A DNA stretch of 64,000 nt from Candidatus Shapirobacteria bacterium (GTDB lineage: Bacteria > Patescibacteriota > Microgenomatia > UBA12405). A program made the position numbers and the translations under genes. Below, one piece after another: positions 5,219-27,100 of this stretch; within the stretch, counting starts at the first letter, position 1; each line of letters starts with the position of its first letter. The notes beneath the pieces were generated by a model that ran no database searches, had not been told where the DNA came from, and worked only from the letters and a program-made list of their open reading frames with translations. The stretch spans positions 427,999-491,998 of the forward strand of contig JAQWEN010000001.1 of the NCBI GenBank assembly GCA_028704885.1, given 5' to 3'.

Positions 5219-5262
5219 AAACCCACTCCTAAATCCCCTCCCTTGAGGAAATGAGGGGACTT
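5219..5262. other. GC-rich structured intergenic element E2 (AAACCCACTC ... CCCCTC / GAGGGG 6-bp stem ... ACTT), related to E1
   Basis: Stem 5235-5240 pairs with 5253-5258. It lies between yvcK and the TMTC-like gene and shares its 5' decamer and stem chemistry with 3075-3141. Confidence 0.35.
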
Positions 5263-9780: not shown

Positions 9781-11283
9781 TTATTTTTTCTTTTGGTTAT
9801 TCTTTCCTTTCCCAAAGAATAGGATTTTTAAAGCTGGGCTTTTCTTTTCTTTTAATACTTTATAGATATAGATAGGATTGAGTAAAACGTATTTGAAATA
9901 AAATTTAAAGTTTAACCATGTAATTAATAATTTTATTTTTAAAATCATTGATAAATATTTTTGATCGTGACGTTTTTCCGGATTAAGAAATACCCTGTCT
10001 TCTAAAAAATAAAATCTATCTTTTTTCCAAAACTCAAAACAAGCTTTAAGTGGAATTTCTGTAAATAAATTATCAACATTCATATTTTTTGATACCAAGC
10101 CCTTTTCTAGTGCATAGTCCCAAATTTTAGTGCCGGGATAAGCAATTAAGATGTAAATGTTGGGATTTTCGATGGGGTGTTTTTTTAGTAATTGATAGGT
10201 GGCTTGCAAATCTTCAATTGTTTCTCCTGGTATAGTGACAATAAAACCACTGGAAACTCCAATTCCATATTTATGACATAAATCTATAGCTTTTATATTT
10301 TGTTCAACTGAAACAGAATTAGCTTTTAAATAATTGAGCATTTTGGAACTAAAACTTTCAAAACCAAAAGATATTCTTTTTACGTTCATACTCTTTAGAG
10401 CCTTAACAACATCTTCGTCGATTAAATCGGCCTTACCAAATCCAGAAAATACAATTTTTTTGTGCCATCCTCTTTTTTTAATTTCATTAGCTAGATGAAT
10501 TAATCTTGCTTTTGGAGCGGTAAAAAAATCGTCAAAAAAATATAGGCCATCGATGTCGTAATTTTTGATTAGATAATCAATTTCTTTAATAATATATTCA
10601 ACAGAATGAAACCTAACAGAACCCCATTGAACATTGGATGCACAATGGAGACAATGGTAAGGACAACCTCTTGATGTCATCATGCCAGTAAGTCTTTTCA
10701 TTCCGTATAAATTGAGTTGACGGCTTAAATATTTTTTTTCCATAGGAACGAATTCTCTTGAAGGTATTGGTAATTGATCAATGTTTTGAATTAGTTTTCT
10801 GGGTTTAGTTTTAATTAACTTATTTTTTTCAAAATATACTAAACCGTCTATTTTAGAATTTTTAATATTATTTTTTTTATCATTTTTATATGCTTCAATT
10901 ATTTCACCAAGTGTTATTTCTCCTTCACCTATAACACCAACATCAAAAACTTTATCAAAAGAATCAGGACAGCCAGTGATATGGGTGCCACCTATTATAA
11001 TTTTAGTTTTAATAGATTGTTTAACTTTTTTTGCTATTGATTTAGTGAAATCGTAGTTAACGGAATCGACAGTAAAACCAACAATATTAGGGTGATATTT
11101 AATTATTTTTTTTAATGGTTTACTATCTTCAATGATTTTTATGTCTACGAAAGGATATTTTTCTTTTATACAACTTCCTAAACACATAAGACCGAAATGG
11201 GGAATATTGTTCCAAACTTTTTCGCAATTAACTAATAATAGCTTTATTTTCTTTTCTTTACGGTTCATGAAATATGATAGCAT
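9781..11283 (-). CDS. B12-binding-domain radical SAM enzyme (class B; putative sugar C-methyltransferase or modifier)
   Basis: The N-terminal Rossmann-like B12-binding region (KIKLLLVNCEKVW...IVGFTV...IIIGGTHIT) is followed by MMTSRGCPYHCLHCAS, the CxxxCxxC cluster. Confidence 0.8.
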   Translation of the reverse strand: MLSYFMNRKEKKIKLLLVNCEKVWNNIPHFGLMCLGSCIKEKYPFVDIKIIEDSKPLKKIIKYHPNIVGFTVDSVNYDFTKSIAKKVKQSIKTKIIIGGTHITGCPDSFDKVFDVGVIGEGEITLGEIIEAYKNDKKNNIKNSKIDGLVYFEKNKLIKTKPRKLIQNIDQLPIPSREFVPMEKKYLSRQLNLYGMKRLTGMMTSRGCPYHCLHCASNVQWGSVRFHSVEYIIKEIDYLIKNYDIDGLYFFDDFFTAPKARLIHLANEIKKRGWHKKIVFSGFGKADLIDEDVVKALKSMNVKRISFGFESFSSKMLNYLKANSVSVEQNIKAIDLCHKYGIGVSSGFIVTIPGETIEDLQATYQLLKKHPIENPNIYILIAYPGTKIWDYALEKGLVSKNMNVDNLFTEIPLKACFEFWKKDRFYFLEDRVFLNPEKRHDQKYLSMILKIKLLITWLNFKFYFKYVLLNPIYIYKVLKEKKSPALKILFFGKGKNNQKKK

Positions 11284-11325
11284 TATTTCTTGTTTAATAA
11301 GGTATTTTTTAAAAAATGTTAAAAG

Positions 11326-12888
11326 TTATTTTAATATCTTATATTTATAAGCGGCTTTAAGACGATGAGTTTTTAGCTCTCCAAATTTAATAGTAGAAAC
11401 AACCATTGATAAATAATTTCTGATTATTTTGACAAGATAACTAAAATCTTCCCAATTATGAATTTTTTTGATAATAGTTGCCGGTTTGATAATGGGACGG
11501 AAAAAACGAGAAAGCATCAATTTTCTTTGGGCTTTATTACGGAGATTTCGAATGTCATTTACAGAAAGATATTTATTTCCCAAACCGGCATAACCAGAAA
11601 ATGTTTTACCAATTTTGGTATTGCTAATGTCAGCTTTTTTTAATAGACCTTCATCTTCTAAAATTTTAGTAACATCTGTTTCGGGAAAAGGCATTAATAA
11701 GATAAAAACAACAAAATCAGAAAGAGATTTAATGGCGTAATTAAAGGTGGTTTCAATAGCTTTTTTGGTTTCATAAGGAAAACCAATTATGTAAGTAGAA
11801 AAAGTCCAAATACCAAGACTATTCGTAAGTTTAATTATTTTTTTGGCTTTTTGTAAATTTAAATTTTTTCTAATAAATTTTTGAGTGACAGGATGACCAG
11901 ATTCAATACCAAAAGTTAATCGATAACAACCACTCTTTTTCATTTTTTTAAGAAGAGATCTATTTAAAGTCCAAATAGCTATGCCATTAGGACAAGTCCA
12001 TTTAATATCTAATTTTTTGGCAATAATTCCGTCGCAGATTTTTTCTAGTCGATCGCGACTGACAGAAATATTATCGTCGAGAAAATGAATTTCCTTAATA
12101 CCATATCTTTTAACTAAAAATTCGATTTCATTAACGATACGCTCAGCACTAAAAGGTCGCCAACTTCGACCCCAAATTCCAGGAACAGCACAGTAAATAC
12201 AATTTCCAGGACAGCCACGGCTGGTAACAACGGTGGTGGCTGGAGAACGCATGTCATAAGTATTTTTACTTTCTGCATAAACCCTAAGATAAACGTCCAT
12301 AGGAAATAAATGTCGAGCTGGAAGCGGTAGAGAATCTAATTTAGCAATCGGAAGACGACGTGGATTCAAAATAATTTCGCCTTGATCATTTCTTATGGCA
12401 GTACCATTTATATTTTGAAGACTTTCCTTATTTTCGAATTTTTTAACTATTTCAAGAATAGTATATTCACCTTCACCAATAACCACGATGTCAACATTAG
12501 GATCATGAAGAACATTTTTATAAAGAATTGAAGCATGAGCACCACCAAAAACAACTAATGTTTTGGGATTGAATTGTTTGACTATTTTGGCAACATCATG
12601 AGAATCGCTGGAATAGGCTGTGAACATAGTGCTGATACCAACAATATCCGGTTTGAAGTATTCTAATCTTTCAAGAATTGTTTTTTCTGATAAACCAACC
12701 CTGGTATAATTTTTGGTTTTTTTGACAATATCGATGCCTTCAGCCAGAGCATCGATAGCAGAAACATTATAACCATTGGTTTCTAAAATGGCACCAATGT
12801 TAGCTAAACCTAGTGGTATGGCGGCACCGGGAGTAGTGGTGTCATTACTTCTAATAGTCATTGGTGGGTAAATAAGGAGGATTTTCAT
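11326..12888 (-). CDS. B12-binding-domain radical SAM enzyme (class B)
   Basis: MKILLIYPP...IVGISTMFT...LVVFGGAHAS is followed by VVTSRGCPGNCIYCAV. Confidence 0.8.
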   Translation of the reverse strand: MKILLIYPPMTIRSNDTTTPGAAIPLGLANIGAILETNGYNVSAIDALAEGIDIVKKTKNYTRVGLSEKTILERLEYFKPDIVGISTMFTAYSSDSHDVAKIVKQFNPKTLVVFGGAHASILYKNVLHDPNVDIVVIGEGEYTILEIVKKFENKESLQNINGTAIRNDQGEIILNPRRLPIAKLDSLPLPARHLFPMDVYLRVYAESKNTYDMRSPATTVVTSRGCPGNCIYCAVPGIWGRSWRPFSAERIVNEIEFLVKRYGIKEIHFLDDNISVSRDRLEKICDGIIAKKLDIKWTCPNGIAIWTLNRSLLKKMKKSGCYRLTFGIESGHPVTQKFIRKNLNLQKAKKIIKLTNSLGIWTFSTYIIGFPYETKKAIETTFNYAIKSLSDFVVFILLMPFPETDVTKILEDEGLLKKADISNTKIGKTFSGYAGLGNKYLSVNDIRNLRNKAQRKLMLSRFFRPIIKPATIIKKIHNWEDFSYLVKIIRNYLSMVVSTIKFGELKTHRLKAAYKYKILK

Positions 12889-12893
12889 ATTAT

Positions 12894-14354
12894 TTATTTT
12901 TTAGATGGAGAAATTAGAAAAACAAAAAGTTTATTAAATAATTTATTATCATAAACTAATTTTCTAGAAAGGTGTCCTAAAATTGGTACACGGGTTAATA
13001 AATAAAAAATAATTCCTAATATTTTGCCGAAACGGAATTGATAAAGCTTTCTTTCGTATAAATTAAAACCTTTTTTCATGATACTAATTCGCTGGTTTTT
13101 GGTAAATTCTTTAGTTTCAAAAATAGGATTAATGTCGCGATAAGATATTTCCTTTAGATATTGATTTTTGGGAATTAAAAAATGAGCGTGTTTAATTGCC
13201 CAGTAATAAACTTCGGTACCAGGATAAGGAACAAGATTATAGAAATTAACATAATTACAATTTAACTTTTTAGCGAAATTAAGAGTTTCTATGGCATCTT
13301 GATAGGTTTCATCTTGGTGGCCAATAATAAAATTAACGGCGTGTTTAATTTTAGCTTGATTAGTAAATTTTACAGCTTGGATAACTTGGTCTAAAGTAAT
13401 ATTTTTTTTGATTCGGTCAAGAATTTTTTGACTGCCTGATTCACAACCATAAGCAATAAAAAAACAACCAGTTTTTTTTAATTTTTTGAGAAGTTTTAGG
13501 GTTATATTATTAACTCTAATGCCGTTGTAAAGTTGAAACTTGAGGTGAAGTTTATTTTTAATGATTAAATCACAAATGGCTTCGGCTCGATTAATATCAA
13601 GAGTAAAACAATCATCATTAAAATCGAAATTGGTAAAACCTTTCTTGTACCAATAAGTAATTTCATCAATAACATTTTGAGGACTACGTGGTCGAAAACT
13701 TTGACCCATAGAGAGGCGGACAGAACAATAATTACAACCATGAGGACAACCACGAGAAGTAATAATAGGAATAATTTTTTCCCGAAAACAAGGGTAGGCC
13801 GACAAATTAAAACTTTCGTAATCTGGGAAAGGTAATTGATCTAGATGTTGAATTAGAGGCGCTGGTGAGTTAATAATTATTTTGTTTTTGTTTTTCCAAA
13901 TGAGATTTGGTACTTTAGAGAAATCTGGTTTTTTTTGAAAAAAAACTTTTAAAAAATCAATAATAGAAGTTTCTGACTCACCGTACATAGCAAAAGTAAC
14001 CTTGGTTTCTTTTAATATTTTATCTTTGGTAGCAGAAACGTGAGGACCACCAAGGATAATGGGGGTAGCAGTAATGGATTTGATTTTTTTAATTGCTTGA
14101 TAAATATATTTATAAGCATAACTAAACCCAGTGACACCAATGATGTCGGGAGAAAAAACTTTTATAATAGTTTTTAATTTAGTTGGCCAATCTTTTTCAA
14201 TTCCACAATCAATAATTTGATATTGATAATTATTGGCTTTGAGGATAGAGACAAGATAGGCAATACCAACATGAGGATGGATAGGAGTCCCCTTTTCGGT
14301 ACCGAACATAGATTTAACTTCCGGAATAACAAATAGTATTTTTTTGGATATCAT
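12894..14354 (-). CDS. B12-binding-domain radical SAM enzyme (class B)
   Basis: ILFVIPEV...IIGVTGFSY...IILGGPHVS is followed by IITSRGCPHGCNYCSV. Confidence 0.8.
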   Translation of the reverse strand: MISKKILFVIPEVKSMFGTEKGTPIHPHVGIAYLVSILKANNYQYQIIDCGIEKDWPTKLKTIIKVFSPDIIGVTGFSYAYKYIYQAIKKIKSITATPIILGGPHVSATKDKILKETKVTFAMYGESETSIIDFLKVFFQKKPDFSKVPNLIWKNKNKIIINSPAPLIQHLDQLPFPDYESFNLSAYPCFREKIIPIITSRGCPHGCNYCSVRLSMGQSFRPRSPQNVIDEITYWYKKGFTNFDFNDDCFTLDINRAEAICDLIIKNKLHLKFQLYNGIRVNNITLKLLKKLKKTGCFFIAYGCESGSQKILDRIKKNITLDQVIQAVKFTNQAKIKHAVNFIIGHQDETYQDAIETLNFAKKLNCNYVNFYNLVPYPGTEVYYWAIKHAHFLIPKNQYLKEISYRDINPIFETKEFTKNQRISIMKKGFNLYERKLYQFRFGKILGIIFYLLTRVPILGHLSRKLVYDNKLFNKLFVFLISPSKK

Positions 14355-15385
14355 TAGACTTTAAGTAAAATTGATTTATTAATTTTGTTTATAATGCTTT
14401 CTTTTTTGTAAATATAGGTAAAAAGTTTTTTGTCGGTTAAAACTCTATTTTTTTGAATTGTTCGTCTTTTTAATAAAGTTTTCTTAATATTTTTTATATT
14501 CCAGATTATACCTAAAATAATATAAAAAGACCCTTTTACTTTAAATTTAATAAATAACAAATAAATAGAATATAGAATAAAAATAGATATTTGTTTTGGT
14601 AAAATTATTATTAATTTGGGTAATGATAAATTTTTTAATATAGTTAAAATATAATTTTTAGTTCCGTGAAAATAGAGGTTATAGTTGGCAAAATTGAAAT
14701 TTAATAATTTAAAACTGCCGGAAAAACCATGATATACAATGGAATTTGGACAATAAACTGTTTTGAAACCTTTTAACCAAGAACGCCAGCATAGATCAGT
14801 CTCTTCCATATAAATGAAATAATCATTGTCAAAACCACTAATTAATTTAAAAACATCTTTTCTAATGAACATGCCAGCTGATTTAGCGGCAAATACAACA
14901 GCTTTTTTATCATATTGACCAACATCAATATCTTTATAGGTGGCTCGGTGGCTTAATAGACCGAATTGATTTAGATAATCACCAGTATAGTCAAATTTAT
15001 TTTTTTCATTTAATAAAAGTAATTTTGATTGGATACAACCTATTTTTTTGTCCTTATCAAATTCAGATTTAGCAGCTTTTAACCAATTTATATCAACTTC
15101 TGTGTCATTATCAAGAAAACTAATTATTTTACCTTTGGCTATTTTAACGCCACGATTTCTAGCAAAAGCTGGACCAAAGTTTTTTTTAAGATCTAAAATT
15201 TTTATTTTGGATAAATTAGACTTAAATTCAAATTTTATTTTTTCTATTGTACCGTCGGTTGAACCATTGTCAGCGATTATTATTTCATAATTTTTATATG
15301 AATTTTTTAGAATAGAGTTAAGACAATTCTTTAAAAGAGAATAACCATTATAGTTAACTATGATAATAGAGACTAATGAATTCAT
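14354..15385 (-). CDS. Glycosyltransferase family 2
   Basis: SIIIVNYNGYSLLKNCLNSIL...YEIIIADNGSTDGT and a DxD in FLDNDTEV. The C-terminus has TM helices. Confidence 0.8.
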   Translation of the reverse strand: MNSLVSIIIVNYNGYSLLKNCLNSILKNSYKNYEIIIADNGSTDGTIEKIKFEFKSNLSKIKILDLKKNFGPAFARNRGVKIAKGKIISFLDNDTEVDINWLKAAKSEFDKDKKIGCIQSKLLLLNEKNKFDYTGDYLNQFGLLSHRATYKDIDVGQYDKKAVVFAAKSAGMFIRKDVFKLISGFDNDYFIYMEETDLCWRSWLKGFKTVYCPNSIVYHGFSGSFKLLNFNFANYNLYFHGTKNYILTILKNLSLPKLIIILPKQISIFILYSIYLLFIKFKVKGSFYIILGIIWNIKNIKKTLLKRRTIQKNRVLTDKKLFTYIYKKESIINKINKSILLKV

Positions 15386-15388
15386 TTT

Positions 15389-16357
15389 TTAAATTTTTTG
15401 TTGACCAGAATAAAAACCCTTACACGAAAAATATAAACTAATAAATAACAAATAAATATTAATTAATGGTAATAATATGACTATTGGTTTTTTGATGCAA
15501 TAAATTAGAGTATTTTTAGTATAAAGAAATGAATAAATTATAATTAAAATTAAAAAAAACAATCTTATATATGGAAACAATAAGCCAATGAGTAGAATTT
15601 CTCGAAAAAAGGTACGAATAAAATGTTTTATATTTAAAATGCCATATTTTTTTAGTAAAGCTCCTTGAGCTTCGGAGTATTGGGCTTGTTTATAAATGAT
15701 TTTTTTGTAATTAAAAGTATCTTCTTGATTATGAATATGAAGTATAGTTGCTTTAGTAGAAACTACTTGGCCGATTTTGTTAAGTTTTAAAAAAATATCC
15801 CCATCTTCACCAGCTCGAAAAAAAATTTTATTATCGAAAAGACCAATTTTAATTAATTCTTTTCGTCGATAACAATCAAATTTACCGTCCATAGCCGATT
15901 GAAGTTTTTTTAATTGCCTGTCGAAAAAAACTTTTTGCCAAAAATTATATTTTTTCCAGATTTTAAATGGATGAATTACTTGATGGTAGCTGGCGATAAT
16001 TTTTTTTTGAGAAAAAGGGGCGACTAAAAGAGATATAGCATTCTTTTGAAGAATTACATCTGAGTGCAAGGTAATGACCAAATCCCCTTTTGAATTTAAA
16101 ATTCCATCATTGTATGAAGCAGATAAACCGATAGATTTGGAATGGTTAATTATATTTTTTTTAATTTTAGTAAAATGTTTTTTAAAATAGGTTTTTATTA
16201 TGGATAAAGATTTATCAGTAGAACCATCATTGATGATGATTATTTCATAAATTAGTTTTTGTTGAGTTGATAGACTCTTTAGAGTATTAAGAATAGTTGA
16301 TTGAGCGTTGTAGACAGGAATTATTATTGAAATCTTGTTCATGTTAATTTTGCCCAA
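15389..16357 (-). CDS. Glycosyltransferase family 2 with a C-terminal membrane anchor
   Basis: ISIIIPVYNAQSTILNTLKSL...YEIIIINDGSTDKS and a hydrophobic C-terminus. Confidence 0.75.
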   Translation of the reverse strand: MGKINMNKISIIIPVYNAQSTILNTLKSLSTQQKLIYEIIIINDGSTDKSLSIIKTYFKKHFTKIKKNIINHSKSIGLSASYNDGILNSKGDLVITLHSDVILQKNAISLLVAPFSQKKIIASYHQVIHPFKIWKKYNFWQKVFFDRQLKKLQSAMDGKFDCYRRKELIKIGLFDNKIFFRAGEDGDIFLKLNKIGQVVSTKATILHIHNQEDTFNYKKIIYKQAQYSEAQGALLKKYGILNIKHFIRTFFREILLIGLLFPYIRLFFLILIIIYSFLYTKNTLIYCIKKPIVILLPLINIYLLFISLYFSCKGFYSGQQKI

Positions 16358-17376
16358 CTAGGTGGTAAATTTTCTTCTATTTCAATATTTTTGAATTTTT
16401 TTGGTTTAATAGGACCGATTTTTTGAGCATAAGCAATCATGCTTTTTAAACCTACCTCCATTTTGGTTTCATTCTTTATATTGAATATTTTTTTTGCCTT
16501 TAAATGATTGGAGAAAGCTTGATAAACTTCGATCCTGGGTGGAAAATGAATTATTTCTGTTTTTTTGGAAAAGTATTGACTGATAATTTCAGCAATTTCG
16601 TTAATAGTATATGGTTTTTCGGAACCAATATTAATTATTTGATTAGTAGCCTGATCATTGGTGGCTGATTGAGCGATGTAGGGAGCGACGTCTTTGACGT
16701 AAGTAAAAGCGCGAGTTTGATTGCCGTCACCAAAAATTGTTAATGGTTTATGCAACATAATATTATTTATAAAAATACCGAGAACATTTCGATAGGGATC
16801 ACCGTGATTTTGTCTTTCACCATAAACATTGTGGGGTCTGAAAATTACATAATTTAAACCAAACATTTTATGAGCAGCTTCTAAATCAAGTTCAATTGCA
16901 TATTTAGCGATACCATAAGGATCTTCTGGTTGAGGAGTTAAACTTTCAACCATTGGAGTTTGATTGGTGCCATATACAGCAATACTTGAAGTAAAAATAA
17001 ATTTTTTAATTTGATGTTTAATTGATGCATTAATTAAATTTATAGAACCGATTAAATTATTTTCATAATTAAAACGACGAATAAAAGGACTTAAACCTTC
17101 AGCTGCATAAGCTGCTAAATGAAAAACATAGTCGAAATTGTATTTATTAAATAAAGAATCGACTAATTTTTGATTAGTAACCGAACCTTTGATAAAGATG
17201 GCTTTAGAATTAATATTTCGAAGAAAACCACCACTTAAATTATCTAAAACAACAACTTTGTAGCCCAAATTTATAAGTTCATCAACTAAATGAGAGCCGA
17301 TAAATCCGGCACCACCAGTAACTAAACAAATTATTTTTTTATTTATATTTGACTGGGTCTTATTGTCAGTATTCAT
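16339..17376 (-). CDS. NAD-dependent sugar-nucleotide epimerase/dehydratase (extended SDR, UDP-hexose 4-epimerase-like)
   Basis: The Rossmann motif ICLVTGGAGFIGSHLVDEL and the catalytic YGIAKYAIE (YxxxK). Confidence 0.8.
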   Translation of the reverse strand: MNTDNKTQSNINKKIICLVTGGAGFIGSHLVDELINLGYKVVVLDNLSGGFLRNINSKAIFIKGSVTNQKLVDSLFNKYNFDYVFHLAAYAAEGLSPFIRRFNYENNLIGSINLINASIKHQIKKFIFTSSIAVYGTNQTPMVESLTPQPEDPYGIAKYAIELDLEAAHKMFGLNYVIFRPHNVYGERQNHGDPYRNVLGIFINNIMLHKPLTIFGDGNQTRAFTYVKDVAPYIAQSATNDQATNQIINIGSEKPYTINEIAEIISQYFSKKTEIIHFPPRIEVYQAFSNHLKAKKIFNIKNETKMEVGLKSMIAYAQKIGPIKPKKFKNIEIEENLPPSWAKLT

Positions 17377-17383
17377 AAACTAA

Positions 17384-18496
17384 TCAAAAAATTGGATTAA
17401 GAGAACAACATCTAAAACAAGCAGGTATTATTTTATTTTTTTGGATGTATTTTTGAAATCTAATAGTTTTTTTGTTATGCCAAATATCTAAAAGCGAATT
17501 TTCTTTTATATTTCCCAAAATATAACCATGACACATCTCAATATCACCATTACCTCGGAGAAAAACTTGATTAAAGGGTGATGTACAAATAGATTCTTTT
17601 TTGGGAATGGCGCCAGTATAAAAATTTTTGATATCCATACTATTTGGCATAGTAATTTTTACTTTTGATTTATTGCTGTTTATTAAGGCTTGAGTTTCTT
17701 TTAATTTTTGAGAAATAGTTAATCTTTCTTTGGCATTAAAAAGAACTTTTTTAGTGCCGTTGTATTCGCCCCAAACATCATTTCCAAACTTAGTTTTTTG
17801 ACTGAATTTTAATTGTTGTTTTCTTATTTTGTCGTAAAAATAAAAATGATGACTAATTGACCATTCATCAACACCTAAATCTTTAATAACTTCGTAAATT
17901 TTGTCAAAATTAGCGATATTTGATTTAGAGATAACAGTGGCAATACGAATATTGGGAAAAGTGTTCTTACCCCTTAATTCAATTATTTTTTTAATGCCTT
18001 TAATTATTTGAGGGAATGAATCTTTAACTAATCCTCTCTGGTATTGAGTTGCTTCATCTGGACCATCAAGAGAAATGGCTAAAAAATCGAGTCCAGAATT
18101 AATTAAATCAGCAGCCATCTTTTCAAGCAACATACCATTGGTCACAAGGCCTTTGACTATTCTTTTTTGATCTAAATATTTTATTATGTCAATAATTTCT
18201 GGGTGCATTAAGGGTTCTCCACCGGCTAATGAAACTGAGGGAGAATAAGGAGCAATATTATCAAAAAACTTTTTTAAATCAGGTAAAGAAAGTTCGTTCA
18301 TATTTTTAAGACGAGAAGTTACAACATGGCACATGGGACAATTAAAATTACAACGTTCCGTAATAAAACAATTTATCGTTCGAGGAAAAGGAGTGGCTTT
18401 ATTTTCATATAAATATTTATCAAAGACAGTATTTTTGGCAGTTGATGGATATTTAATTGCTAATTTAATTTTTTTTTGAAGGTTTAGCTGAGCCAT
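17384..18496 (-). CDS. Radical SAM enzyme with a SPASM/twitch C-terminal domain
   Basis: ITERCNFNCPMCHV (CxxxCxxC) and the C-terminal cysteine cluster CTSPFN...GDIEMCHGY...IIPACFRCCS. Confidence 0.8.
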   Translation of the reverse strand: MAQLNLQKKIKLAIKYPSTAKNTVFDKYLYENKATPFPRTINCFITERCNFNCPMCHVVTSRLKNMNELSLPDLKKFFDNIAPYSPSVSLAGGEPLMHPEIIDIIKYLDQKRIVKGLVTNGMLLEKMAADLINSGLDFLAISLDGPDEATQYQRGLVKDSFPQIIKGIKKIIELRGKNTFPNIRIATVISKSNIANFDKIYEVIKDLGVDEWSISHHFYFYDKIRKQQLKFSQKTKFGNDVWGEYNGTKKVLFNAKERLTISQKLKETQALINSNKSKVKITMPNSMDIKNFYTGAIPKKESICTSPFNQVFLRGNGDIEMCHGYILGNIKENSLLDIWHNKKTIRFQKYIQKNKIIPACFRCCSLNPIF

Positions 18497-18497
18497 A

Positions 18498-19619
18498 TTA
18501 ATAATGTCTGACGATTAATTTTATATTATTGATATTGAAATATTTTTTGGTGTAACTAGGACAATTGTTTTTCATTTGATTAAGTAAAATTCTATCATTT
18601 TTTAGCTTTAAAATTGCAGATTTAAAGTTTTCAACAGTAGGTTTTACTAAAATTGAGACAGATTCATCAACTATTTCGGGAATAGTACCAATATCTGAGG
18701 CAATAACCGGAAGACCAGAAGCGACGGCCTCCATAATGGTTCTAGTGAAACCTTCTTGATATAAGGCTGGCTGAATAAAAACATCGGCGGTTGAATAATA
18801 ATCAATTAATTTGTGGTTATCAATTTTTCCTAGGAAATTAATATTAGATAATTTTTGTTGAGAAATATATTTTGATTCCGGACCAGATCCAATAATTACA
18901 AATTCAATGTTGGGTAGTTTTTTGGCAAGTTTGATAATAATTCTAGTCCCCTTTTTAATAATAAGACGGGAAACAAAAAGAACTTTGAATTTTGAAGGAG
19001 AAATATTTGATTTTTTATTATTGAATTTTTTTGGATCAACCCAATAACGATATAAGGATATTTTTTTACTATTTACTCCCCAATTTATTAATTGATTTTT
19101 TGAGTGAACAGATTGGGCCAAAACCATATCGGTTCGGTTTAAGACAAAACTAGTCAGTTTGGCAGTGAGAGAAGTGGATGAATTATCATAAAGAGCGTGG
19201 GTGCTAGTGACATGTTTTTTGTGGAAGAAAAAAGCTAAAATATTTCCAGCAACAGCTCCATTAAACCCATGAGAATTAATGGTGGTAATTTTTTGATGAT
19301 TGAAAAGCATCCAAAAAAAGGTACGAAGACATAAATAAGGAGTTAAATATAGAAAATCTATAAATGGATATTTTTCAACTTTATGAAAAAGATTTTTGCC
19401 AAACCATCGATATCTGTAAATATTAATATTATTGATTTTTTCTCTTGATTTCCATTCAACATTAGCGGTAGTTAAAGGGGAATAAGTGTGAACATAAACT
19501 GGATAACCCAGGTTATCTAAACCATTAACTAAATCAGTAAGATGAGTTTCAACACCGCCAATATTTGGAGAAAAAAATGGAGTAAGAATTAAAATGCCTT
19601 TTTTAGAATTTATTTTCAT
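18498..19619 (-). CDS. Glycosyltransferase family 4 (GT-B)
   Basis: ILILTPFFSPNIGGVETH and EGFTRTIMEAVASGLPVIASDIGTIPEIV (the E-x7-E motif). Confidence 0.75.
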   Translation of the reverse strand: MKINSKKGILILTPFFSPNIGGVETHLTDLVNGLDNLGYPVYVHTYSPLTTANVEWKSREKINNINIYRYRWFGKNLFHKVEKYPFIDFLYLTPYLCLRTFFWMLFNHQKITTINSHGFNGAVAGNILAFFFHKKHVTSTHALYDNSSTSLTAKLTSFVLNRTDMVLAQSVHSKNQLINWGVNSKKISLYRYWVDPKKFNNKKSNISPSKFKVLFVSRLIIKKGTRIIIKLAKKLPNIEFVIIGSGPESKYISQQKLSNINFLGKIDNHKLIDYYSTADVFIQPALYQEGFTRTIMEAVASGLPVIASDIGTIPEIVDESVSILVKPTVENFKSAILKLKNDRILLNQMKNNCPSYTKKYFNINNIKLIVRHY

Positions 19620-19621
19620 AA

Positions 19622-20692
19622 TTAGTTTAATATTTTTTCAAGGCTGTTTTTGTTGTCGATTATCCATTGATAAATTTCTTGAAAGGTTTGTTCTTTGGTT
19701 TTTTGACAAAACCAATTTGAAATTTTTTTAAATTTTGAACTGTCGGAAATATAAGTTCTAATATCATCTGGTCGATTTTCTAAAGATGAGGAAATATTGA
19801 TTTTGTTTTTAGTTATTTTTTGGCAAAGTTCGGTCATTTCTAATAACGAAAGACTGTTTTCTTGACCGCCACCAATATTAAAAATCTCATTATTGTATTT
19901 ATCAATATTTTCGATTTGAATATTTATGACATCAAATAAATCGTCAATGTCGATAAAATCTCTAACTTGTTTTCCTTTACCACCAAAACCAATATATGAT
20001 AGAGGTTTATTTTTCCATATATGACGGGCAATCCAAAGAGCTATTACTCCTTGATCAACTTTTCCCATTTGCCAAGGTCCAGTAATAATTCCACAACGAT
20101 TGATAACTGCCTTAATTTTAAAATTGTGAATATATTCCTGAATTAAAAATTCGGAACACAGTTTGGTGGCTCCATATAAGGATCGATATTTTCCGAGAGG
20201 GAACTTTTCAGATATACCTTGTGAGGATATTCCTTCTAATGTTTGTTTGTTATCTATTTCGAATCTGGTTTTGCTTTCTTTATATTTAATTTGATTAAGT
20301 TCTTCAATTGGATAAATACGACTGGTTGATAAAAAGATTAGAGTTGAGTTATTTCTTTTGGCAAGTTCTAGACAATTTAAAGTTCCAACAAGATTGGTAT
20401 TAATTGAATATTGAGAATTATCAATACCAGCCAAAACTGATGGCTCGGCGGAACATTCTAATATTAAATCCATTTTTTTGTCAAAATTTAAATCTTCTTT
20501 ATTTCTGACATCACCATGAATAAAATTTATTCCAAATTTAGCTAGTCTGGGAAGATTTAATTCGGATCCGCGTCTTTTTAAGTTATCTAATACAGTTATA
20601 TTGATATTTGGATAATGTTCTTTTAATTTTATGGCCAAATTAGAACCGACAAAACCAGCCCCACCGGTAATTAAAATATTTTTATAATCCAT
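19622..20692 (-). CDS. NAD-dependent epimerase/dehydratase (extended SDR; CDP/NDP-sugar epimerase-like)
   Basis: ILITGGAGFVGSNLAIKL and YGATKLCSE (YxxxK). Confidence 0.75.
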   Translation of the reverse strand: MDYKNILITGGAGFVGSNLAIKLKEHYPNINITVLDNLKRRGSELNLPRLAKFGINFIHGDVRNKEDLNFDKKMDLILECSAEPSVLAGIDNSQYSINTNLVGTLNCLELAKRNNSTLIFLSTSRIYPIEELNQIKYKESKTRFEIDNKQTLEGISSQGISEKFPLGKYRSLYGATKLCSEFLIQEYIHNFKIKAVINRCGIITGPWQMGKVDQGVIALWIARHIWKNKPLSYIGFGGKGKQVRDFIDIDDLFDVINIQIENIDKYNNEIFNIGGGQENSLSLLEMTELCQKITKNKINISSSLENRPDDIRTYISDSSKFKKISNWFCQKTKEQTFQEIYQWIIDNKNSLEKILN

Positions 20693-20694
20693 AT

Positions 20695-21765
20695 TTAAGT
20701 ATGTATTTGGCTACATAATTCCTGAAGTATGTCGTCAATATTGTAAGAGAAATCCCAATTTGGGTATTGGTTTTTAAATTTAGAAACATCTGAAATATAC
20801 CAAATATGATCACCAATTCGATTGGTTTCAACATATTCATAAATAGCTTTTTTATCTAGAATTTTTTCGATTTTTTCAATTGCTTCTAACATGGAAATAT
20901 TAGAATTTCTGGAACCACCGGCATTGTAAACTTCACCACACATTGGATTTTGATGATAATTCCAAAACATATTCACCAAATCATTACAATGAATATTATC
21001 TCTAACCTGCTTGCCTTTGTAACCAAAAATGGTGTATTTAGTTTTGGTTTTAATACATTTAACTAGATAAGCTAAAAAACCATGGAGTTGGGTGCTGCTG
21101 TGATTTGGGCCAGTTAAACAACCACCTCTAAAGACTCCAGTGTGTAATCCAAAATATTTGCCATATTCTTGAACCATAAGGTCAGCAGATGCTTTAGAGG
21201 CACCAAAAATACTGTGTTTTGAATTATCAATACTCATGCTTTCGTCGATTCCGTTTTTAAAGAAGGGATGACTTTTGTCAATTTCATATCTTTTTTCTAA
21301 TTCGACAAGGGGTAATTTATTCGGAGTGTCACCGTAAACTTTATTAGTAGAGGTGAAAATAAAAGTGGCTTCTGGTGAATATTTTCGATAATTTTCCAAT
21401 AAAATTAAGGTTCCAAGAGCGTTAATAGTAAAATCTGTAATAGGCTCTTTAATAGCCCAATCGTGTGATGGCTGAGCGGCAGTGTGAATAATAATATCGA
21501 ATTTATTGGATTTAAATATCTTTTCTATTTTTTCATTGTTTCTAATATCTATGTTGTGATAAGTGTATTGTTTACCATAATCTTTGGAAAGTAACTCATT
21601 ATTCCATTTAGTGCTGCCTTCTGGGCCAAAAAAATACTCTCTCATATTATTATCGATTCCGATAATCTCATAGCCTTTTTTGGCAAAAAATTTAACAGAT
21701 TCTGATCCAATTAGTCCGGCTGATCCTGTTATTAGAGCTTTTTTTGACATATTTATTGACTCCAA
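20695..21765 (-). CDS. NAD-dependent epimerase/dehydratase (extended SDR), paralogous neighbour
   Basis: [18 protein letters not shown]...[13 protein letters not shown], with YxxxK in [10 protein letters not shown]. Confidence 0.75.
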
Positions 21766-22766
21766 TTATTTCTATTAACAGCTTTTATTAAAGCTAATTT
21801 GTATTTTAAATAGATGGTTGAGTATACAATTAGTGTTATATAACAAGCAATTGGATGAAAAAACCAGGCTGAATCTGGTTTATGAAAATATCCCCTAATA
21901 GAATCTATTACTGCCGGAATGATTAATATTGTATAAAATACAAATTTTATAATTCCGTTTTTATTACTTTGATTCCAGTTAAATTGACGAAACTTTTGAT
22001 AGTAAAAATAATCAGTAATGCGACGGTTTTGTTTGCGAATAAATTTTTTGATCGATGATTCACAAAAAGTGTGAATAATCCCCTGTTTAACTTTGGCAAA
22101 ATAAATTGATTTTTTAGTTTTAGATAAATAATTAGTAATAATATCGATATCAAAAAGATAGTCAGAGTTTATGTTGTTTTTTAAAAAATCATTTCTAAAA
22201 ATAGTGCCGTTGGCACCAATAGTAGGAATAAGTGAATTTGATTTTAATTCAATTTTTATATATTTATTTTTATCAATTTGATCTATTTTTAGCCCAGTCC
22301 ATTTGTAATTGATATAATTTTTTCGATCATAAACTCCAGAAACAAAGGCAAATGGATCATTGACTCCGATTAAGGCAGAATACCTTTCAATAAAACCAGC
22401 CTTTGATCGGTAAGTAAAAAATAGTGGTTCGGTGCCAATTAAAGAAGAATCATTTTCTAAAATATCAATATTAGTTTGAAGCCAATTTTTGGTGGGTAAA
22501 ATATTATCAGAATCAATTAAAGCAATGTATTTCCCAATAGCGTTTTTGACACCAATAGCCTTGCCGGCTTCGGCAGTTTTGAGTAAATTTTTAACAATTT
22601 TGACATGATATTTTTTAGCGATTTTAAGAGTGTTATCGGTCGATCCTCCATCGGCGATAATAATTTCGTATTCTTTTTTAGGAAAAGATTGTTTTTTAAT
22701 CGATTTAAGACAGTTTTCTAGAACCGAGTTAGCATTAAGAGTAGGAATAATAAAACTAATTATCAT
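21753..22766 (-). CDS. Glycosyltransferase family 2
   Basis: [22 protein letters not shown]...[14 protein letters not shown] and [10 protein letters not shown]. Confidence 0.75.
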
Positions 22767-24261
22767 TGTTAGAAAAATCTTTTAATTTTTTAAAATATTT
22801 AAAAGCATAATTAAAAAGATGTTTAATATCATCAATAGATCTAATGGAAATTATTTTTTGAAAAATAAATTTTGGAGTAAGAATACCTTTGAATAGATTT
22901 TGAACTAGTTCAATTTGATCGTTTGGAGAAATTGATGATTTAATAACCGGTTGACGCATATCAAAATCATCCCAATTTGTCGATAAAAGTAGATTATTTT
23001 CTTGACAATATTTAAAAAGCGGAGTGCCGGGATAAGGAATTAAAATAGTAGCCTGAAGACTGTCAGCGAGATTATCTTTGAAAATTTTTCTGGCTAAATT
23101 TAAGGTTTTAGCAGCATCAAATTTATCTTCATTTGGATAACCAATAATAATAGTAACATGGGGTTCTAATCTGGCTTGTTTAGCAATTTTTAGGGTTTTT
23201 AGAGCATCACTGGTCTTTTCGTTTTTATTTATAAAATCAAGAGTTTTTTGATTGGCTGATTCGAGACCATATAAAACAAAACGGAAACCAGCTTGGTGCA
23301 TTAGTTGATATTCTGATAAAGATAAAGCGCCAAAGCGCATATTGCAACCAATTTTAACTTTTTTGTTTAAACCACGACTGATTAGGGCTTGGCATAATTC
23401 TTTCAACCAAGGGCCGATAGGAAGGGTGCCTGAGTCATCAAAAATTTCTTTGACACCAAAGTTGTAAACTAAATTTTCGATTTCTTTAAGAGTATGTTCC
23501 ACAGAAAATTGGCGAAAACATTTACCCGGAAAAAGAGTTGTCCAAGAACAAAAAGTGCATTTTCCCCACCAACAATCGCGACCGGACATTATATAAGATC
23601 CGGGTTTGTATTTATAATTAGTGTTGTTGTAGGCATAAAGCTGCCATTGAGTTAATTTGCGATCAATAATTGGCAGTGAATTTAAATCGTGATTTTTGAT
23701 AGATTTATAAATCTTGTTTTTTGGAGCTTGATTTTTATTGATTAATTCGATTAATTCGCTTAATAAAAAATCATAATCACCGCCGACTAGAACGAAATCG
23801 ACTTTAGAATTATTAATTGATTCTTCTGGTAAAGCAGTAACGTGATCACCCATTAAAACAACTATTGGATTCCATTTAAATTCTTTTTTAATTTGATTAA
23901 TTATTTGCCAATGTCTTTTAATTACTGGAGTTTTGCTTTCAATAATAATTAGATCAGGTTTGTTTTTAGAAAGACGTTTAAACCATTCTTGATAAGTTAA
24001 TTTTTGAGCAATGGCATCGTCCCAAAAAACTTTTAATCCCTGACTTTTTAATAAGGTAGCAGCATAAGCAGGAATGACAGGGTAAATTACATTGCCAGTA
24101 TTAGTCCATTGAAATTGACGGTTTTGAGATAAAAACGCAGTGCCTTTATCTGATTCGAGAGGTGGATAAGAAATAGAGACAGATTTAACCGCCAATGTAT
24201 TTGCCAGTTTTTTTATTGAAGGCATGGGCTTTGAATTTAACTTCTTTTTTGAATAGGCCAT
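22756..24261 (-). CDS. B12-binding-domain radical SAM enzyme (class B) with a variant Cx4Cx2C cluster
   Basis: A B12-binding-like N-terminal domain (KPDLIIIESKT...VLMGDHVT) is followed by SGRDCWWGKCTFCSW. The start is uncertain because the ORF overlaps the next gene by 77 nt; an internal M(PSIKK) is a possible start. Confidence 0.7.
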   Translation of the reverse strand: MAYSKKKLNSKPMPSIKKLANTLAVKSVSISYPPLESDKGTAFLSQNRQFQWTNTGNVIYPVIPAYAATLLKSQGLKVFWDDAIAQKLTYQEWFKRLSKNKPDLIIIESKTPVIKRHWQIINQIKKEFKWNPIVVLMGDHVTALPEESINNSKVDFVLVGGDYDFLLSELIELINKNQAPKNKIYKSIKNHDLNSLPIIDRKLTQWQLYAYNNTNYKYKPGSYIMSGRDCWWGKCTFCSWTTLFPGKCFRQFSVEHTLKEIENLVYNFGVKEIFDDSGTLPIGPWLKELCQALISRGLNKKVKIGCNMRFGALSLSEYQLMHQAGFRFVLYGLESANQKTLDFINKNEKTSDALKTLKIAKQARLEPHVTIIIGYPNEDKFDAAKTLNLARKIFKDNLADSLQATILIPYPGTPLFKYCQENNLLLSTNWDDFDMRQPVIKSSISPNDQIELVQNLFKGILTPKFIFQKIISIRSIDDIKHLFNYAFKYFKKLKDFSNNDN

Positions 24262-25165
24262 GTAGGAATAGTATACCGTAGTAAAGGTGAGTTATAGGAA
24301 TAGTAATGGTGGCTAAAAGAGAAACTTTAAGATTATTTTTCTTAGAAAGAAAGATTAATAAAGTAAAAAATAATATTGATAAATATAAATATAATGGAAT
24401 ATACAATAAATAATAATTAAAAATTAACAAATTAATAATTAATATTATTAAATAAAAAACAAAAAATGAAGGTATAAAATAACCAATTTTAAGACTGGTT
24501 TCGGGAAATTTTTTAACAAAAAAGCCTCGTTGAACAGCGTAGCGAGTTATTTGTTGAAGATGGGGAAGGATAACCGATCGACGATGGTGATAAACAATTA
24601 AAGATGGATTATAAAGAATTTTTTTGTTTAAGTTTTTAACTAAATTTAAACAAAGAACAGTATCTTCACCGGGCCAAAAAGAGACATCGAAACCACCAGC
24701 TAAATTAAAATCATTTTTTTTAACAATAAGATTAACTGAAGGGTAATCGTCAACAAAACGGGCTTTTTGAATACTATTTCGATAAATTCCAGCACCACCA
24801 CTGCCAAGCCAACTGCCCCAAACTAAACCAGAAGCTTTTTGATATAAATTGTCTTTTGGAGGGGTAAGACATGGACCACAAAAAGCGGCAAATTTCGGAT
24901 TATTTTCTACTAATTTGAGTGCGTTTTTAAAATAATTTTTATGAGGATAAGAATCGTCGTCAAAAAATACAAGATATTCACCTTTGGCTTTTTGGGCTCC
25001 TAAATTTCTTTTTTCGGAAGGGTTGGCCGAACCAGATACTTTATCAGTTATAATCAAAACTTCAAAATTTTTGAAAGATTGTTTTTTAAGTTTAGAGATA
25101 GTTTCTTGAAGATACTCATTGGTTTTGCGAACCGGAATGATAACAGAAAATTTTGGTGATTTCAT
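24185..25165 (-). CDS. Glycosyltransferase family 2 with C-terminal TM helices
   Basis: FSVIIPVRKTNEYLQETISKL...FEVLIITDKVSGS, FFDDDS and GGF...FWPGEDTVLC. Confidence 0.75.
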   Translation of the reverse strand: MKSPKFSVIIPVRKTNEYLQETISKLKKQSFKNFEVLIITDKVSGSANPSEKRNLGAQKAKGEYLVFFDDDSYPHKNYFKNALKLVENNPKFAAFCGPCLTPPKDNLYQKASGLVWGSWLGSGGAGIYRNSIQKARFVDDYPSVNLIVKKNDFNLAGGFDVSFWPGEDTVLCLNLVKNLNKKILYNPSLIVYHHRRSVILPHLQQITRYAVQRGFFVKKFPETSLKIGYFIPSFFVFYLIILIINLLIFNYYLLYIPLYLYLSILFFTLLIFLSKKNNLKVSLLATITIPITHLYYGILFLHGLFKKEVKFKAHAFNKKTGKYIGG

Positions 25166-25167
25166 GA

Positions 25168-25971
25168 TTATTTTCCAGTGTTAATTCTCATGTCTAATTC
25201 CGGATTATAGATCCATTTTCTTTTATTTTTATCGTCGTAATAATTTAGGATCCTCAGTCGATAAAAAACAGACATAGATTCCATAAAACAACTGTAAATA
25301 ATTTTAAGACCAGTGGCGTGGGTTAAACTACTAAAATCATAAGTTAATTTGATTGGGGCTTCATATATTTTAGTAAAACCTAATTTATTGGCGACAGCTA
25401 ATATCTCCAGATCAAAAGCATAATTTTTTACCATAAGACGAGGAAGAACTTTCACTAAAACTGGACGTTTAAATATTTTTAAACCAGCTTGAGTGTCATG
25501 AACATTGATGCCTAATAAAAATTTAGAAATTATATGGGCTCCAAAACTGACTATTTTTCGACTAGGGGGATATTTAACCATGGAGGCTGGATGTCGTTTT
25601 GAGGCAACGATTATATCGGCGTTATACCATTCCATGTGTTCTAGGACTAAAGAAATGCCGTTGGGATCGATTTCCATACCAGAATCGATAAAAGCGATAT
25701 AATCCCCTTTTGTTTTGGCCATGCCATACCTGACAGCATAACCTTTACCGTGATTGTGCTTGTACCCAAAAACTTTTAAATTTGGCAGTTTAATTTTTTT
25801 GATCTCGGAAAATGATTTATCAATAGAAGTGCCATCAACAACAGCAATAATTTCATAGTCATAACGAATTTGTTTTAAAGTTTCATTGATATTCAAAAGG
25901 TCTTGTTTGATGGTTTTTTCTTGTTTATAAATGGGAATAATAACTGACAAGAAATGATTGTTATTTTTCAT
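25168..25971 (-). CDS. Polyprenol-phosphate sugar synthase (GT2, Dpm1/GtrB/ArnC-like)
   Basis: LSVIIPIYKQE...YEIIAVVDGTSIDKS, GKGYAVRYGMAKTKGDYIAFIDSGMEIDP and HDTQAGLKIFKR (the DTQCGFK-type motif). Confidence 0.75.
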   Translation of the reverse strand: MKNNNHFLSVIIPIYKQEKTIKQDLLNINETLKQIRYDYEIIAVVDGTSIDKSFSEIKKIKLPNLKVFGYKHNHGKGYAVRYGMAKTKGDYIAFIDSGMEIDPNGISLVLEHMEWYNADIIVASKRHPASMVKYPPSRKIVSFGAHIISKFLLGINVHDTQAGLKIFKRPVLVKVLPRLMVKNYAFDLEILAVANKLGFTKIYEAPIKLTYDFSSLTHATGLKIIYSCFMESMSVFYRLRILNYYDDKNKRKWIYNPELDMRINTGK

Positions 25972-27100
25972 CCTTTAAAATTAAATTATAAAGGGCAAGA
26001 GTTTGAATGGCAGTATATTTCCAATCAAAATTTTTAGCGTGAATTAGGCCAAGCTTAATATATTTTTGGCGAAGATCATTATCATTCCAAAATTGAACTA
26101 GAGATTTTTCTAAATCTTTTTGAGAATGAGGATTAAATTTTAAACCATTGGAATCCATAATTTCATCTAAACAAGAGTCTTGACTGTAAGCAACCGGACA
26201 ACCAGATTTCATGGCTTGGACAAGAGGTAGACCAAAACCTTCAGCAAAAGACGGTTGACAATAAATGGTGGCCAAATTATAAAAATAAGGTAAATCTTCA
26301 TCTGGGACAAAACCTGGAAGGATTAGTTCTCTAGTTCGCTGGATCTCTGCTTCTCTAGATTTAGATTGAAGCCAAAGAAGATCTTGTGTCCAAGGATGAT
26401 TGGGAACATCTTTTTTGACAGCAGAAGAACCAACAATAACTAAGGGAAATTTTAATTTTAAACAAGCCTTAACAAGGGTCGGAATATTTTTATTCCAATT
26501 AATATCACCGACAAATAGGATAAATTTTTTGGGTAAGTTATATTTTTTTTGAATTTCGGTTAATTTTTTAGAATCAGAAATAACTTTAAAAGTTGGATCG
26601 GCGGCTAAGTGGGTAACGAAAATATTATTTAAATTGTATTTAGTAATTTGATTAATAATATTTTTAGAATAATGAGAAACAGTTAAGATTTTATCGACTT
26701 TTAAAAGTCGATGTTTTTGAATAAACCATTTTATTTCACCTTTGATTCCGACTGGAAAATGAGATTTAAATTGACGAGGAATGAGGTCATGAACAGTAAC
26801 AACGGTTGGAATATTGGTTTTTTTGGGAAGAGTTAATTTAAATGGGTCGAAATAAGGATAATGAATAAGATCATAGGTATTAGATCTTAGATCGTTGACG
26901 TTGGTTATTAAATCAATTTGGTAATTTTTATAATTAGGATTGGATTTTATTTCGGTTTGAAGTGCCGAAATTAGATTGGAAGTGTAATAGCCGACACCCC
27001 GAACAGCATTACCGTCTTGAGTTGGAGAAATATCGATTGCGATTCTTTTAATTTTCAATTTTAAATTTTTAATTTTTAATTTATTTTTTATCCCAATCAT
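25961..27100 (-). CDS. Glycosyltransferase family 4 (GT-B)
   Basis: EGFGLPLVQAMKSGCPVAYSQDSCLDEI (E-x7-E). Confidence 0.75.
   Translation of the reverse strand: MIGIKNKLKIKNLKLKIKRIAIDISPTQDGNAVRGVGYYTSNLISALQTEIKSNPNYKNYQIDLITNVNDLRSNTYDLIHYPYFDPFKLTLPKKTNIPTVVTVHDLIPRQFKSHFPVGIKGEIKWFIQKHRLLKVDKILTVSHYSKNIINQITKYNLNNIFVTHLAADPTFKVISDSKKLTEIQKKYNLPKKFILFVGDINWNKNIPTLVKACLKLKFPLVIVGSSAVKKDVPNHPWTQDLLWLQSKSREAEIQRTRELILPGFVPDEDLPYFYNLATIYCQPSFAEGFGLPLVQAMKSGCPVAYSQDSCLDEIMDSNGLKFNPHSQKDLEKSLVQFWNDNDLRQKYIKLGLIHAKNFDWKYTAIQTLALYNLILKDEK

Follow-up and report, generated by a model that had tools for sequence, protein, structure and literature searches.

What does a radical S-adenosylmethionine (SAM) enzyme act on when its gene sits among glycosyltransferases and sugar epimerases? 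The question is raised by an open reading frame (ORF) in a 64,000-nucleotide stretch of contig JAQWEN010000001.1 (hereafter the window) from Candidatus Shapirobacteria, a member of the candidate phyla radiation (CPR). The original prediction, made from the letters alone, described a SPASM/twitch radical SAM enzyme lying between sugar epimerases and a family 4 glycosyltransferase (GT4), and suggested a BtrN-like dehydrogenase or epimerase. Our analysis favours, with a probability of about 0.6, a cytoplasmic sugar-tailoring enzyme that is partnered with the adjacent GT4 and belongs to an exchangeable cassette of a large surface-glycan island. A surface sugar rather than a peptide is the probable substrate because the gene always accompanies, and in relatives is fused to, genes for sugar-transferring enzymes. 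The gene (hereafter the target) and the two cysteine-rich sites of its product map as follows.

17384..18496, minus strand: the target, a radical SAM gene assigned to the twitch type, an ATG-to-stop ORF of 370 amino acids (aa)
18329..18352, minus strand: codons of C49-x3-C53-x2-C56, the predicted SAM-binding [4Fe-4S] site, invariant in a family alignment of 28 sequences and in all remote homologues checked
17405..17587, minus strand: putative twitch (half-SPASM) domain, residues 304-364, C304-x12-G317-x4-C322 ... C360-F-R362-C363-C364, located by the Pfam SPASM match and invariant Cys

The predicted ORF was recovered exactly, as were its neighbours: a short-chain dehydrogenase/reductase (SDR), a GT4 and two further SDRs. 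Two Pfam domains were assigned to the target, Radical_SAM at residues 45-202 (E = 7e-22, above the gathering score) and SPASM at residues 304-363 (E = 1.3e-10, 41.9 bits against a cut-off of 21.5). A homologue search returned 82 clusters at 39-100% identity, including a 100% match to a protein from a Candidatus Shapirobacteria metagenome-assembled genome (MAG) on a 735-kb contig; the 81 others span 39-88% identity, and beyond the 82 the scores drop from 306 to 104 bits. Conservation on this scale marks the target as a genuine gene, not a reading frame that arose by chance. Its product has the hallmarks of the Radical SAM superfamily (PF04055), namely the CX3CX2C motif, a GGE-type SAM motif (GGEP at residues 92-95, invariant in the 28-sequence alignment) and a partial TIM-barrel core. 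The AlphaFold2 model is confident (predicted local distance difference test, pLDDT, 92; predicted template-modelling score, pTM, 0.91) and begins with two short N-terminal helices (residues 6-15 and 17-29), followed by the radical SAM core, then by a bridge of alpha-helices (about 216-300) and last by a beta-hairpin twitch domain. The target exceeded no NCBIfam cut-off, the best match being a tungsten-cofactor oxidoreductase maturase at 121.6 bits against 380, and judged by these scores it appears to fall outside every curated family.

The C-terminal part of the alignment contains exactly five invariant Cys (C304, C322, C360, C363 and C364) together with invariant G317 and R362, and 74 of the 80 full-length family members have exactly five Cys beyond residue 290. 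C304-x12-G317-x4-C322 fits the SPASM/twitch hairpin pattern CX9-15GX4C. SPASM domains proper bind two auxiliary clusters, AuxI and AuxII, through seven or eight Cys in a pattern of which CX2CX5CX3C is a part (PMC9012708). The CX2CX5CX3C motif occurred in none of the 80 full-length family members and in none of 109 single-domain-size (330-450 aa) representatives of the wider clade described below. Since there are only five C-terminal Cys and CX2CX5CX3C is lacking, the target, despite its Pfam SPASM match, is best assigned to the twitch type, the hairpin and two further Cys being enough for one cluster. Thus, the twitch half of the earlier SPASM/twitch label is retained and the full-SPASM half is not. 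In the family profile the BtrN twitch domain (residues 188-244) aligns with target residues 303-354, and the spacing of four of the target Cys is one that we take to be of the BtrN type. Four Cys, presumably drawn from these five, would suffice for a fully ligated auxiliary cluster like that of BtrN, which is held by four Cys (PMC9012708). Four-Cys ligation would leave a fifth Cys to spare; the C-F-R-C-C motif also holds the invariant Arg362.

In the window the target has the following neighbours.

18498..19619, minus strand: GT4 glycosyltransferase (Pfam Glycos_transf_1 and Glyco_transf_4), directly upstream of the target in transcription
19622..20692, minus strand: SDR resembling CDP-tyvelose 2-epimerase (best Protein Data Bank, PDB, match, E = 1e-45), a lineage-specific cassette gene
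20695..21765, minus strand: second SDR resembling CDP-tyvelose 2-epimerase (best PDB match, E = 5e-46), a lineage-specific cassette gene
16339..17376, minus strand: GalE-like SDR (UDP-hexose 4-epimerase) of 345 aa, directly downstream of the target (PDB 4zrm, UDP-glucose 4-epimerase, E = 5e-60)

All are on the minus strand, so that in transcription order the two CDP-tyvelose 2-epimerase-like SDRs (356 aa each) and the GT4 precede the target and the GalE-like SDR follows it; the earlier reading had the right genes with upstream and downstream exchanged. We compared the window with 13 further islands containing family members and with metagenomic loci, whose ORFs were labelled by BLASTP against the Pfam-annotated window proteins. 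A GT4 homologue was present on the same strand, at most three genes upstream of the target, in all 23 loci with a visible upstream region, and adjoined it directly in 20. The GT4 is the invariant partner of the target, and GT4-then-target is the sole constant of the cassette. The SDR epimerases occur in only about 8 of the 23 loci, all but one of which (L080) belong to the window's own subclade (at least 72% identity), and a GalE-like SDR directly follows the target only in the window and in L076. Elsewhere a 339-aa radical SAM/SPASM gene fills an SDR slot, for example that of the second SDR in L001-type islands, and the post-target slot may instead hold a 463-aa gene for a B12-binding radical SAM enzyme (hereafter B12-radical SAM), NodU-like carbamoyltransferase genes or methyltransferase genes. 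A neighbour-joining tree placed the SDR-associated subclade as derived within a clade whose usual context is 339-aa radical SAM/SPASM gene, GT4, target and B12-radical SAM gene. The SDR epimerases are a lineage-specific insert and not a conserved partnership; the earlier argument from context holds for the carbohydrate setting but not for the epimerases as partners. In favour of a sugar substrate, classical sugar-tailoring genes occupy the variable positions next to the GT4-target pair: the CDP-tyvelose 2-epimerase-like and GalE-like SDRs, the carbamoyltransferases and the methyltransferases.

Around this cassette the island backbone is conserved, in the order protein-mannosyltransferase (PMT)-like glycosyltransferase of the GT-C type, family 2 glycosyltransferase (GT2), GT4, GT2, GT2, B12-radical SAM, GT2, the cassette, GT2, B12-radical SAM, B12-radical SAM and, further on, TPR protein, CofD-like protein and ABC-2 exporter. 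Backbone proteins of island L001 and the window share 77-86% identity, but identity falls to 37% for the central GT4 and 59% for the target, and L001 has a radical SAM/SPASM gene where the window has the SDR pair. Because backbone identity is so high where GT4 and target identity is low, the contrast looks like recombinational replacement of a serotype-like variable cassette. Several of the compared contigs (L008-L011 and L014-L016) are AT-rich, share the Shapirobacteria island gene order, carry targets 54-78% identical to ours and are titled 'uncultured Gammaproteobacteria bacterium', which is probably a placeholder or a wrong taxonomy.

Glycosyltransferases are not only neighbours of these enzymes but can be part of the same polypeptide. 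In L004, a single ORF (1-2520) encoding a B12-radical SAM::GT4 fusion lies directly upstream of a family member and overlaps it by 4 nt. A 672-aa ORF in L095 (6056-8074) joins a GT2 to a target-like radical SAM/SPASM domain and ends in PACFRCC, and L159 (10698-12840) encodes a radical SAM/SPASM::GT4 fusion in a locus that also contains GT2 and PMT_2 genes. A GT2::GT4 fusion is present in L087 (3023-4996). An exhaustive hidden Markov model search of 1.84 billion representatives gave 929 proteins at E <= 1e-30, and architectures and motifs were counted in the best 150. Among these, 81 of the 109 single-domain-size representatives end in C-x-R-C-C, and 29 proteins are at least 600 aa long. Recurrent long forms in the 150 are GT2::radical SAM::radical SAM (five clusters), B12-radical SAM::target-like (four clusters) and tandem target-like domains; the wider clade also includes P0180, a 1927-aa protein with four radical SAM domains. 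All 80 full-length close homologues carry the P-x-C-x-R-C-C motif, which persists in sequences with as little as 27% identity.

The neighbourhoods of the wider clade have a similar character. One member is found with two GT4 genes, a GT2 gene and Wzy_C, another with a DegT-type sugar aminotransferase and ABC-2 permeases, and a third with a GT2, an ABC transporter, GDSL enzymes and a carbamoyltransferase. A Nanoarchaeota homologue with 29% identity is accompanied by NeuB, CTP_transf_3, PMT_2 and SDR genes, and a remote homologue from Aenigmatarchaeota likewise lies in a glycan locus. We define these proteins here as a proposed CxRCC glycosyltransferase-associated twitch clade, marked by this motif, by the hairpin and by adjacency or fusion to glycosyltransferases or B12-radical SAM proteins; the target belongs to it. 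The clade is large, with at least 929 representative clusters, and unstudied. In the searchable literature on radical SAM enzymes in CPR, Patescibacteria or Microgenomates, on glycosylation and on polysaccharides we found nothing on this family, and only a Brachyspira plasmid paper, discussed below, was relevant.

The recurrent B12-radical SAM partner brings up the idea that the target is an accessory protein that matures, or supplies electrons or a cofactor to, the B12-radical SAM enzymes beside it or some other metalloenzyme. A B12-radical SAM gene does adjoin the target in 16 loci, in addition to the four fused clusters, and the top NCBIfam matches of the target are metalloenzyme maturases (the tungsten-cofactor model and a 'putative metalloenzyme maturase'). 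These maturase scores lie far below their cut-offs and come mostly from the core. The window and loci L008, L009, L011, L012 and L076 keep the target without an adjacent 463-aa B12-radical SAM gene, and the target retains every motif for SAM and cluster binding that a catalytic radical SAM enzyme has. We consider an accessory role very improbable. The specific identity of a tungsten cofactor maturase was set aside on its score and because no partner oxidoreductase is present.

A more familiar alternative is that the target modifies a peptide or protein, as a maturase for ribosomally synthesized peptides with post-translational modifications (RiPPs) or, in the manner of anaerobic sulfatase-maturating enzymes (anSME), on a full-length surface glycoprotein, for instance a pilin or an S-layer protein, with glycosylation by the island's transferases to follow. 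Peptides are the substrates of most characterised SPASM/twitch enzymes (PMC10114670); TPR proteins and numerous PMT-like GT-C enzymes are encoded in the island, and some distant relatives at about 25% identity (P0089, P0101 and P0118) carry a PqqD/RiPP recognition element (RRE) domain. The loci themselves point the other way. The GT4 stop and the target start are separated by 1 nt (TAA-t-ATG) and the target stop and the GalE-like SDR start by 7 nt (TGA-7 nt-ATG), and gaps of this size leave no room for a peptide gene beside the target. A scan for ORFs of at least 20 aa within about 1 kb of the target found only ORFs nested in larger genes, and no family of 20-150-aa ORFs outside large genes was shared among the 14 islands (the window and the 13 others) within 10 kb on either side. 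The claim that no peptide substrate gene lies nearby was thus borne out and extends to the related islands.

The protein itself is equally unlike a peptide maturase. It has no PqqD (PF05402) match, its model contains no winged-helix RRE but only the two short N-terminal helices, and no PqqD-like gene was noticed in the neighbouring loci. Characterised RiPP maturases (SuiB, PqqE and CteB) and anSME have two auxiliary clusters (SkfB has one), come with an RRE or a chaperone as partner, and have their precursor or target protein encoded alongside; the target lacks all of these. Resemblance to anSME in the family profile is confined to the core (E = 7.6e-8), the Cys pattern is that of one cluster, not two, and the window encodes no sulfatase. 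Affiliation with the GG-Bacteroidales peptide system is likewise not indicated, as the GT4 scores 63.6 on TIGR04157 against a cut-off of 400 and no precursor ORF is present. The fusion partners in the clade are GT2, GT4 and B12-radical SAM domains and never peptide-binding domains. With no peptide gene, no RRE, one predicted auxiliary cluster and only these fusion partners, a RiPP maturase role is unlikely, and modification of any peptide or protein, glycoproteins included, is improbable.

The closest solved relative of the target, by sequence and by fold, is BlsE (PDB 7vob). BlsE ranked first by four measures, among them phmmer against solved structures (E = 1.2e-12), the family profile (2.6e-20, ahead of MoaA at 3.7e-15 and GDGT-MAS at 8.5e-15) and Foldseek (E = 2.8e-14). 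It is a twitch enzyme, the cytosylglucuronate decarboxylase of blasticidin S biosynthesis (PMC3715490), and its substrate is the sugar ring of a sugar nucleoside and not a peptide; the sugar-related part of the original prediction fits both this relative and the carbohydrate context found throughout. BlsE resembles the target in size and in combining a radical SAM core with a Cys-rich site near the C-terminus, which reads C317xC319xxC322 in BlsE and C360xxC363C364 in the target. The two share only 15-17% identity, and the target differs in its CxRCC motif and in a bridging insert of 85 residues (216-300); BlsE is encoded in a Streptomyces nucleoside-antibiotic cluster, whereas the target is paired with a GT4 in a surface-glycan island.

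BtrN (PDB 4m7t), the 2-deoxy-scyllo-inosamine dehydrogenase and prototype twitch enzyme, shares with the target a single auxiliary-cluster domain, and its substrate is carbohydrate-like. It is much shorter (250-270 aa), belongs to an aminoglycoside pathway, and differs from the target in the latter's fifth invariant Cys and invariant Arg. We found neither full-length BtrN homology nor an aminocyclitol or aminoglycoside context, and the proposed BtrN-likeness was not upheld. In aminoglycoside pathways, the dehydrogenase SpeY (PDB 7wzv) and two epimerases, NeoN and HygY, are twitch-type enzymes that abstract hydrogen from a sugar carbon, and the epimerases use a non-ligand Cys as hydrogen donor. 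In the target, Cys364 could serve in this way. The substrates of NeoN, HygY and SpeY are soluble antibiotic intermediates, which separates them from the setting of the target. The target represents an uncharacterised, glycosyltransferase-associated clade that resembles the BlsE and BtrN types but is neither.

The same searches bear on the possibility that the target modifies a lipid, as do Tes/GDGT-MAS, HpnH and HpnJ; this could be the carrier, polyprenyl phosphate, or else a glycolipid product of the GT4. The target core matches GDGT-MAS, a tetraether synthase (E = 5.8e-11 for the single sequence as well as the profile value above) and HpnH (69 bits), the partner B12-radical SAM proteins score best on ladderane-lipid and HpnJ models, and the best solved relatives of the GT4 (PimB', PimA and WbnH) all use lipid-anchored acceptors. 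All of these radical SAM scores lie far under the family cut-offs and reflect the generic core only, and the genes around the target in the cassettes encode nucleotide-sugar enzymes, carbamoyltransferases and aminotransferases. CPR genomes, to our knowledge, generally lack lipid biosynthesis, which also counts against a lipid substrate. We regard lipid modification as improbable, much as we do a peptide substrate.

If the target is a sugar-tailoring enzyme, a radical mechanism can be sketched. One [4Fe-4S] cluster on C49, C53 and C56 would cleave SAM, and one auxiliary [4Fe-4S] cluster would be held by four of C304, C322, C360, C363 and C364. The reduced first cluster would cleave SAM to the 5'-deoxyadenosyl radical, which would take hydrogen from a carbon in a sugar ring; the sugar would be either the nucleotide-sugar donor of the GT4 or the newest residue of a lipid-linked intermediate, freshly attached by that enzyme. 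The sugar radical might then give its electron to the auxiliary cluster to form a keto-sugar, a step that might also release CO2, as happens with BlsE, or it might regain hydrogen from the extra invariant Cys364 to form an epimer, as in NeoN/HygY-type enzymes. Oxidation or decarboxylation is our tentative first choice, at somewhat under even odds, with epimerisation a real possibility behind it and some other radical chemistry rather unlikely. The earlier label of dehydrogenase or epimerase is in this respect a guess, and BlsE-like decarboxylation would be equally open. Decarboxylation of a glucuronosyl residue in particular, suggested by TuaC being the top NCBIfam match of the GT4, was not adopted: that score, 84, is below the cut-off (550), and no UDP-glucose dehydrogenase is encoded in the window.

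Several observations weigh against a sugar-tailoring role. No member of the CxRCC clade is biochemically characterised. The similarity to BlsE in sequence is confined to the radical SAM core (residues 43-215), and the BlsE model TIGR04466 gives the target only 68.7 bits against a cut-off of 400, outside that family. Pfam detected no nucleotidyltransferase and no priming transferase in the 64-kb window, so that the sugar pathway as read is incomplete. One clade member, 36% identical and retaining CFRCC, lies between ilvBN and tol genes in a Nitrospirota MAG (Candidatus Magnetomicrobium, L017), a non-glycan locus whose neighbourhood was discarded as a functional clue. Finally, guilt by association cannot tell sugar, lipid-carrier and glycoprotein substrates apart, nor a nucleotide sugar from a lipid-linked glycan. 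A sugar substrate is still the reading we prefer.

The remaining genes of the operon are as follows.

9781..32794, minus strand: packed run of 20 overlapping or abutting genes (glycosyltransferases, radical SAM genes, SDRs and three PMT-like GT-C genes) that contains the target
9781..14354, minus strand: three B12-binding radical SAM genes at the operon end (Pfam B12-binding and Radical_SAM), kept in related islands
14354-15385, minus strand: GT2_a, a conserved backbone gene (Pfam Glycos_transf_2)
15389-16357, minus strand: GT2_b (Pfam Glycos_transf_2)
21753-22766, minus strand: GT2_c, a backbone gene upstream of the cassette (Pfam; 45-87% identity in related islands)
22756-24261, minus strand: fourth B12-type radical SAM gene, backbone, upstream of the cassette (Pfam; 45-87% identity in related islands)

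The largest intergenic gap within 9781-32794 is below 60 nt, and the run is probably one operon, with boundaries placed from gene spacing. A promoter and terminator scan of 9000-28900 gave no excess over shuffled sequence (108 against 108.6 and 11 against 8.8, respectively). Most islands have a GT2_a homologue downstream of the target. None of the four B12-binding radical SAM genes that share the operon reaches an NCBIfam equivalog; their best models are BchE, HpnJ and P-methyltransferase, at about one third of the cut-offs. The ORF at 22756-24261 overlaps the upstream GT2 (24185-25165) by 77 nt (24185-24261), and its true start is probably downstream of the first ATG.

The entire 64-kb window is one glycan island and takes up about 9% of the 735-kb contig. 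About 12 paralogous membrane proteins of 400-580 aa are encoded on both strands at 27905-47143 and 52634-62595; some ten match GT-C families (PMT, PMT_2, GT87, ALG6/8 and PTPS_related), and those at 32874-34553, 37927-40916, 52634-54343 and 55728-58998 have no Pfam match. At the island edge, a CofD-like gene (2-phospho-L-lactate transferase family; 4237-5214, plus strand) and the gene for a 585-aa TPR protein (5261-7018, plus strand) stand beside the ABC-2 exporter, an arrangement conserved in L001, L007 and L014-L016. In the ABC-2 glycan exporter, a gene for a 120-aa '23S rRNA-intervening sequence protein' (PF05635, E = 1e-38; 1772-2134, minus strand) stands between that of the ATPase (952-1782) and that of the permease (2235-3035), an odd place for a four-helix-bundle family.

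A related arrangement exists outside CPR. The best match to the target in a plasmid database was a gene of Brachyspira hyodysenteriae pBHWA1 (27% identity, with 92% of the target covered, E = 6e-16), in the order rfbF (glucose-1-phosphate cytidylyltransferase), radical SAM gene, rfbC and SDR, next to a glycosyltransferase and five more radical SAM/SPASM genes. These five are consecutive, the sixth being the one between rfbF and rfbC (L156; NC_012226.1, 9009-29962), and all six fall below every NCBIfam cut-off. Part of this radical SAM/glycosyltransferase block is associated with virulence, and a role in lipooligosaccharide or glycosylation has been proposed (PMC4267127). Like the target island, the block combines several radical SAM genes with a group 1 glycosyltransferase and an NAD-epimerase. 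The plasmid homologue differs in ending in a plain CxxC (CKRCF) without CxRCC, and it resides on a spirochaete plasmid whereas the target is on a CPR chromosome.

Nearly all radical SAM enzymes so far known to work on sugars belong to antibiotic pathways (BtrN, DesII, BlsE, NeoN, HygY, SpeY and AprD4). We raise as a speculation, one that we would not expect to hold in full, that CxRCC twitch enzymes form a large class of dedicated glycan-tailoring catalysts coupled or fused to glycosyltransferases. Together with B12-radical SAM enzymes in anaerobic, genome-reduced CPR and DPANN organisms, they might replace or extend the work of NAD-dependent epimerases and dehydratases and yield undescribed C-alkylated, epimerised, deoxygenated or decarboxylated surface sugars, the GT4-target module being the fixed core of a recombining, serotype-like cassette. 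If the clade does tailor surface glycans, radical sugar chemistry would reach into primary envelope biosynthesis, which would help to explain the share of coding capacity that very small CPR genomes give to glycan islands rich in radical SAM genes. The natural fusions of glycosyltransferases with radical SAM domains are self-contained test systems for the enzymology, and the related radical SAM block on the virulence-associated Brachyspira plasmid suggests that such chemistry may be relevant to the surface structures of pathogens.

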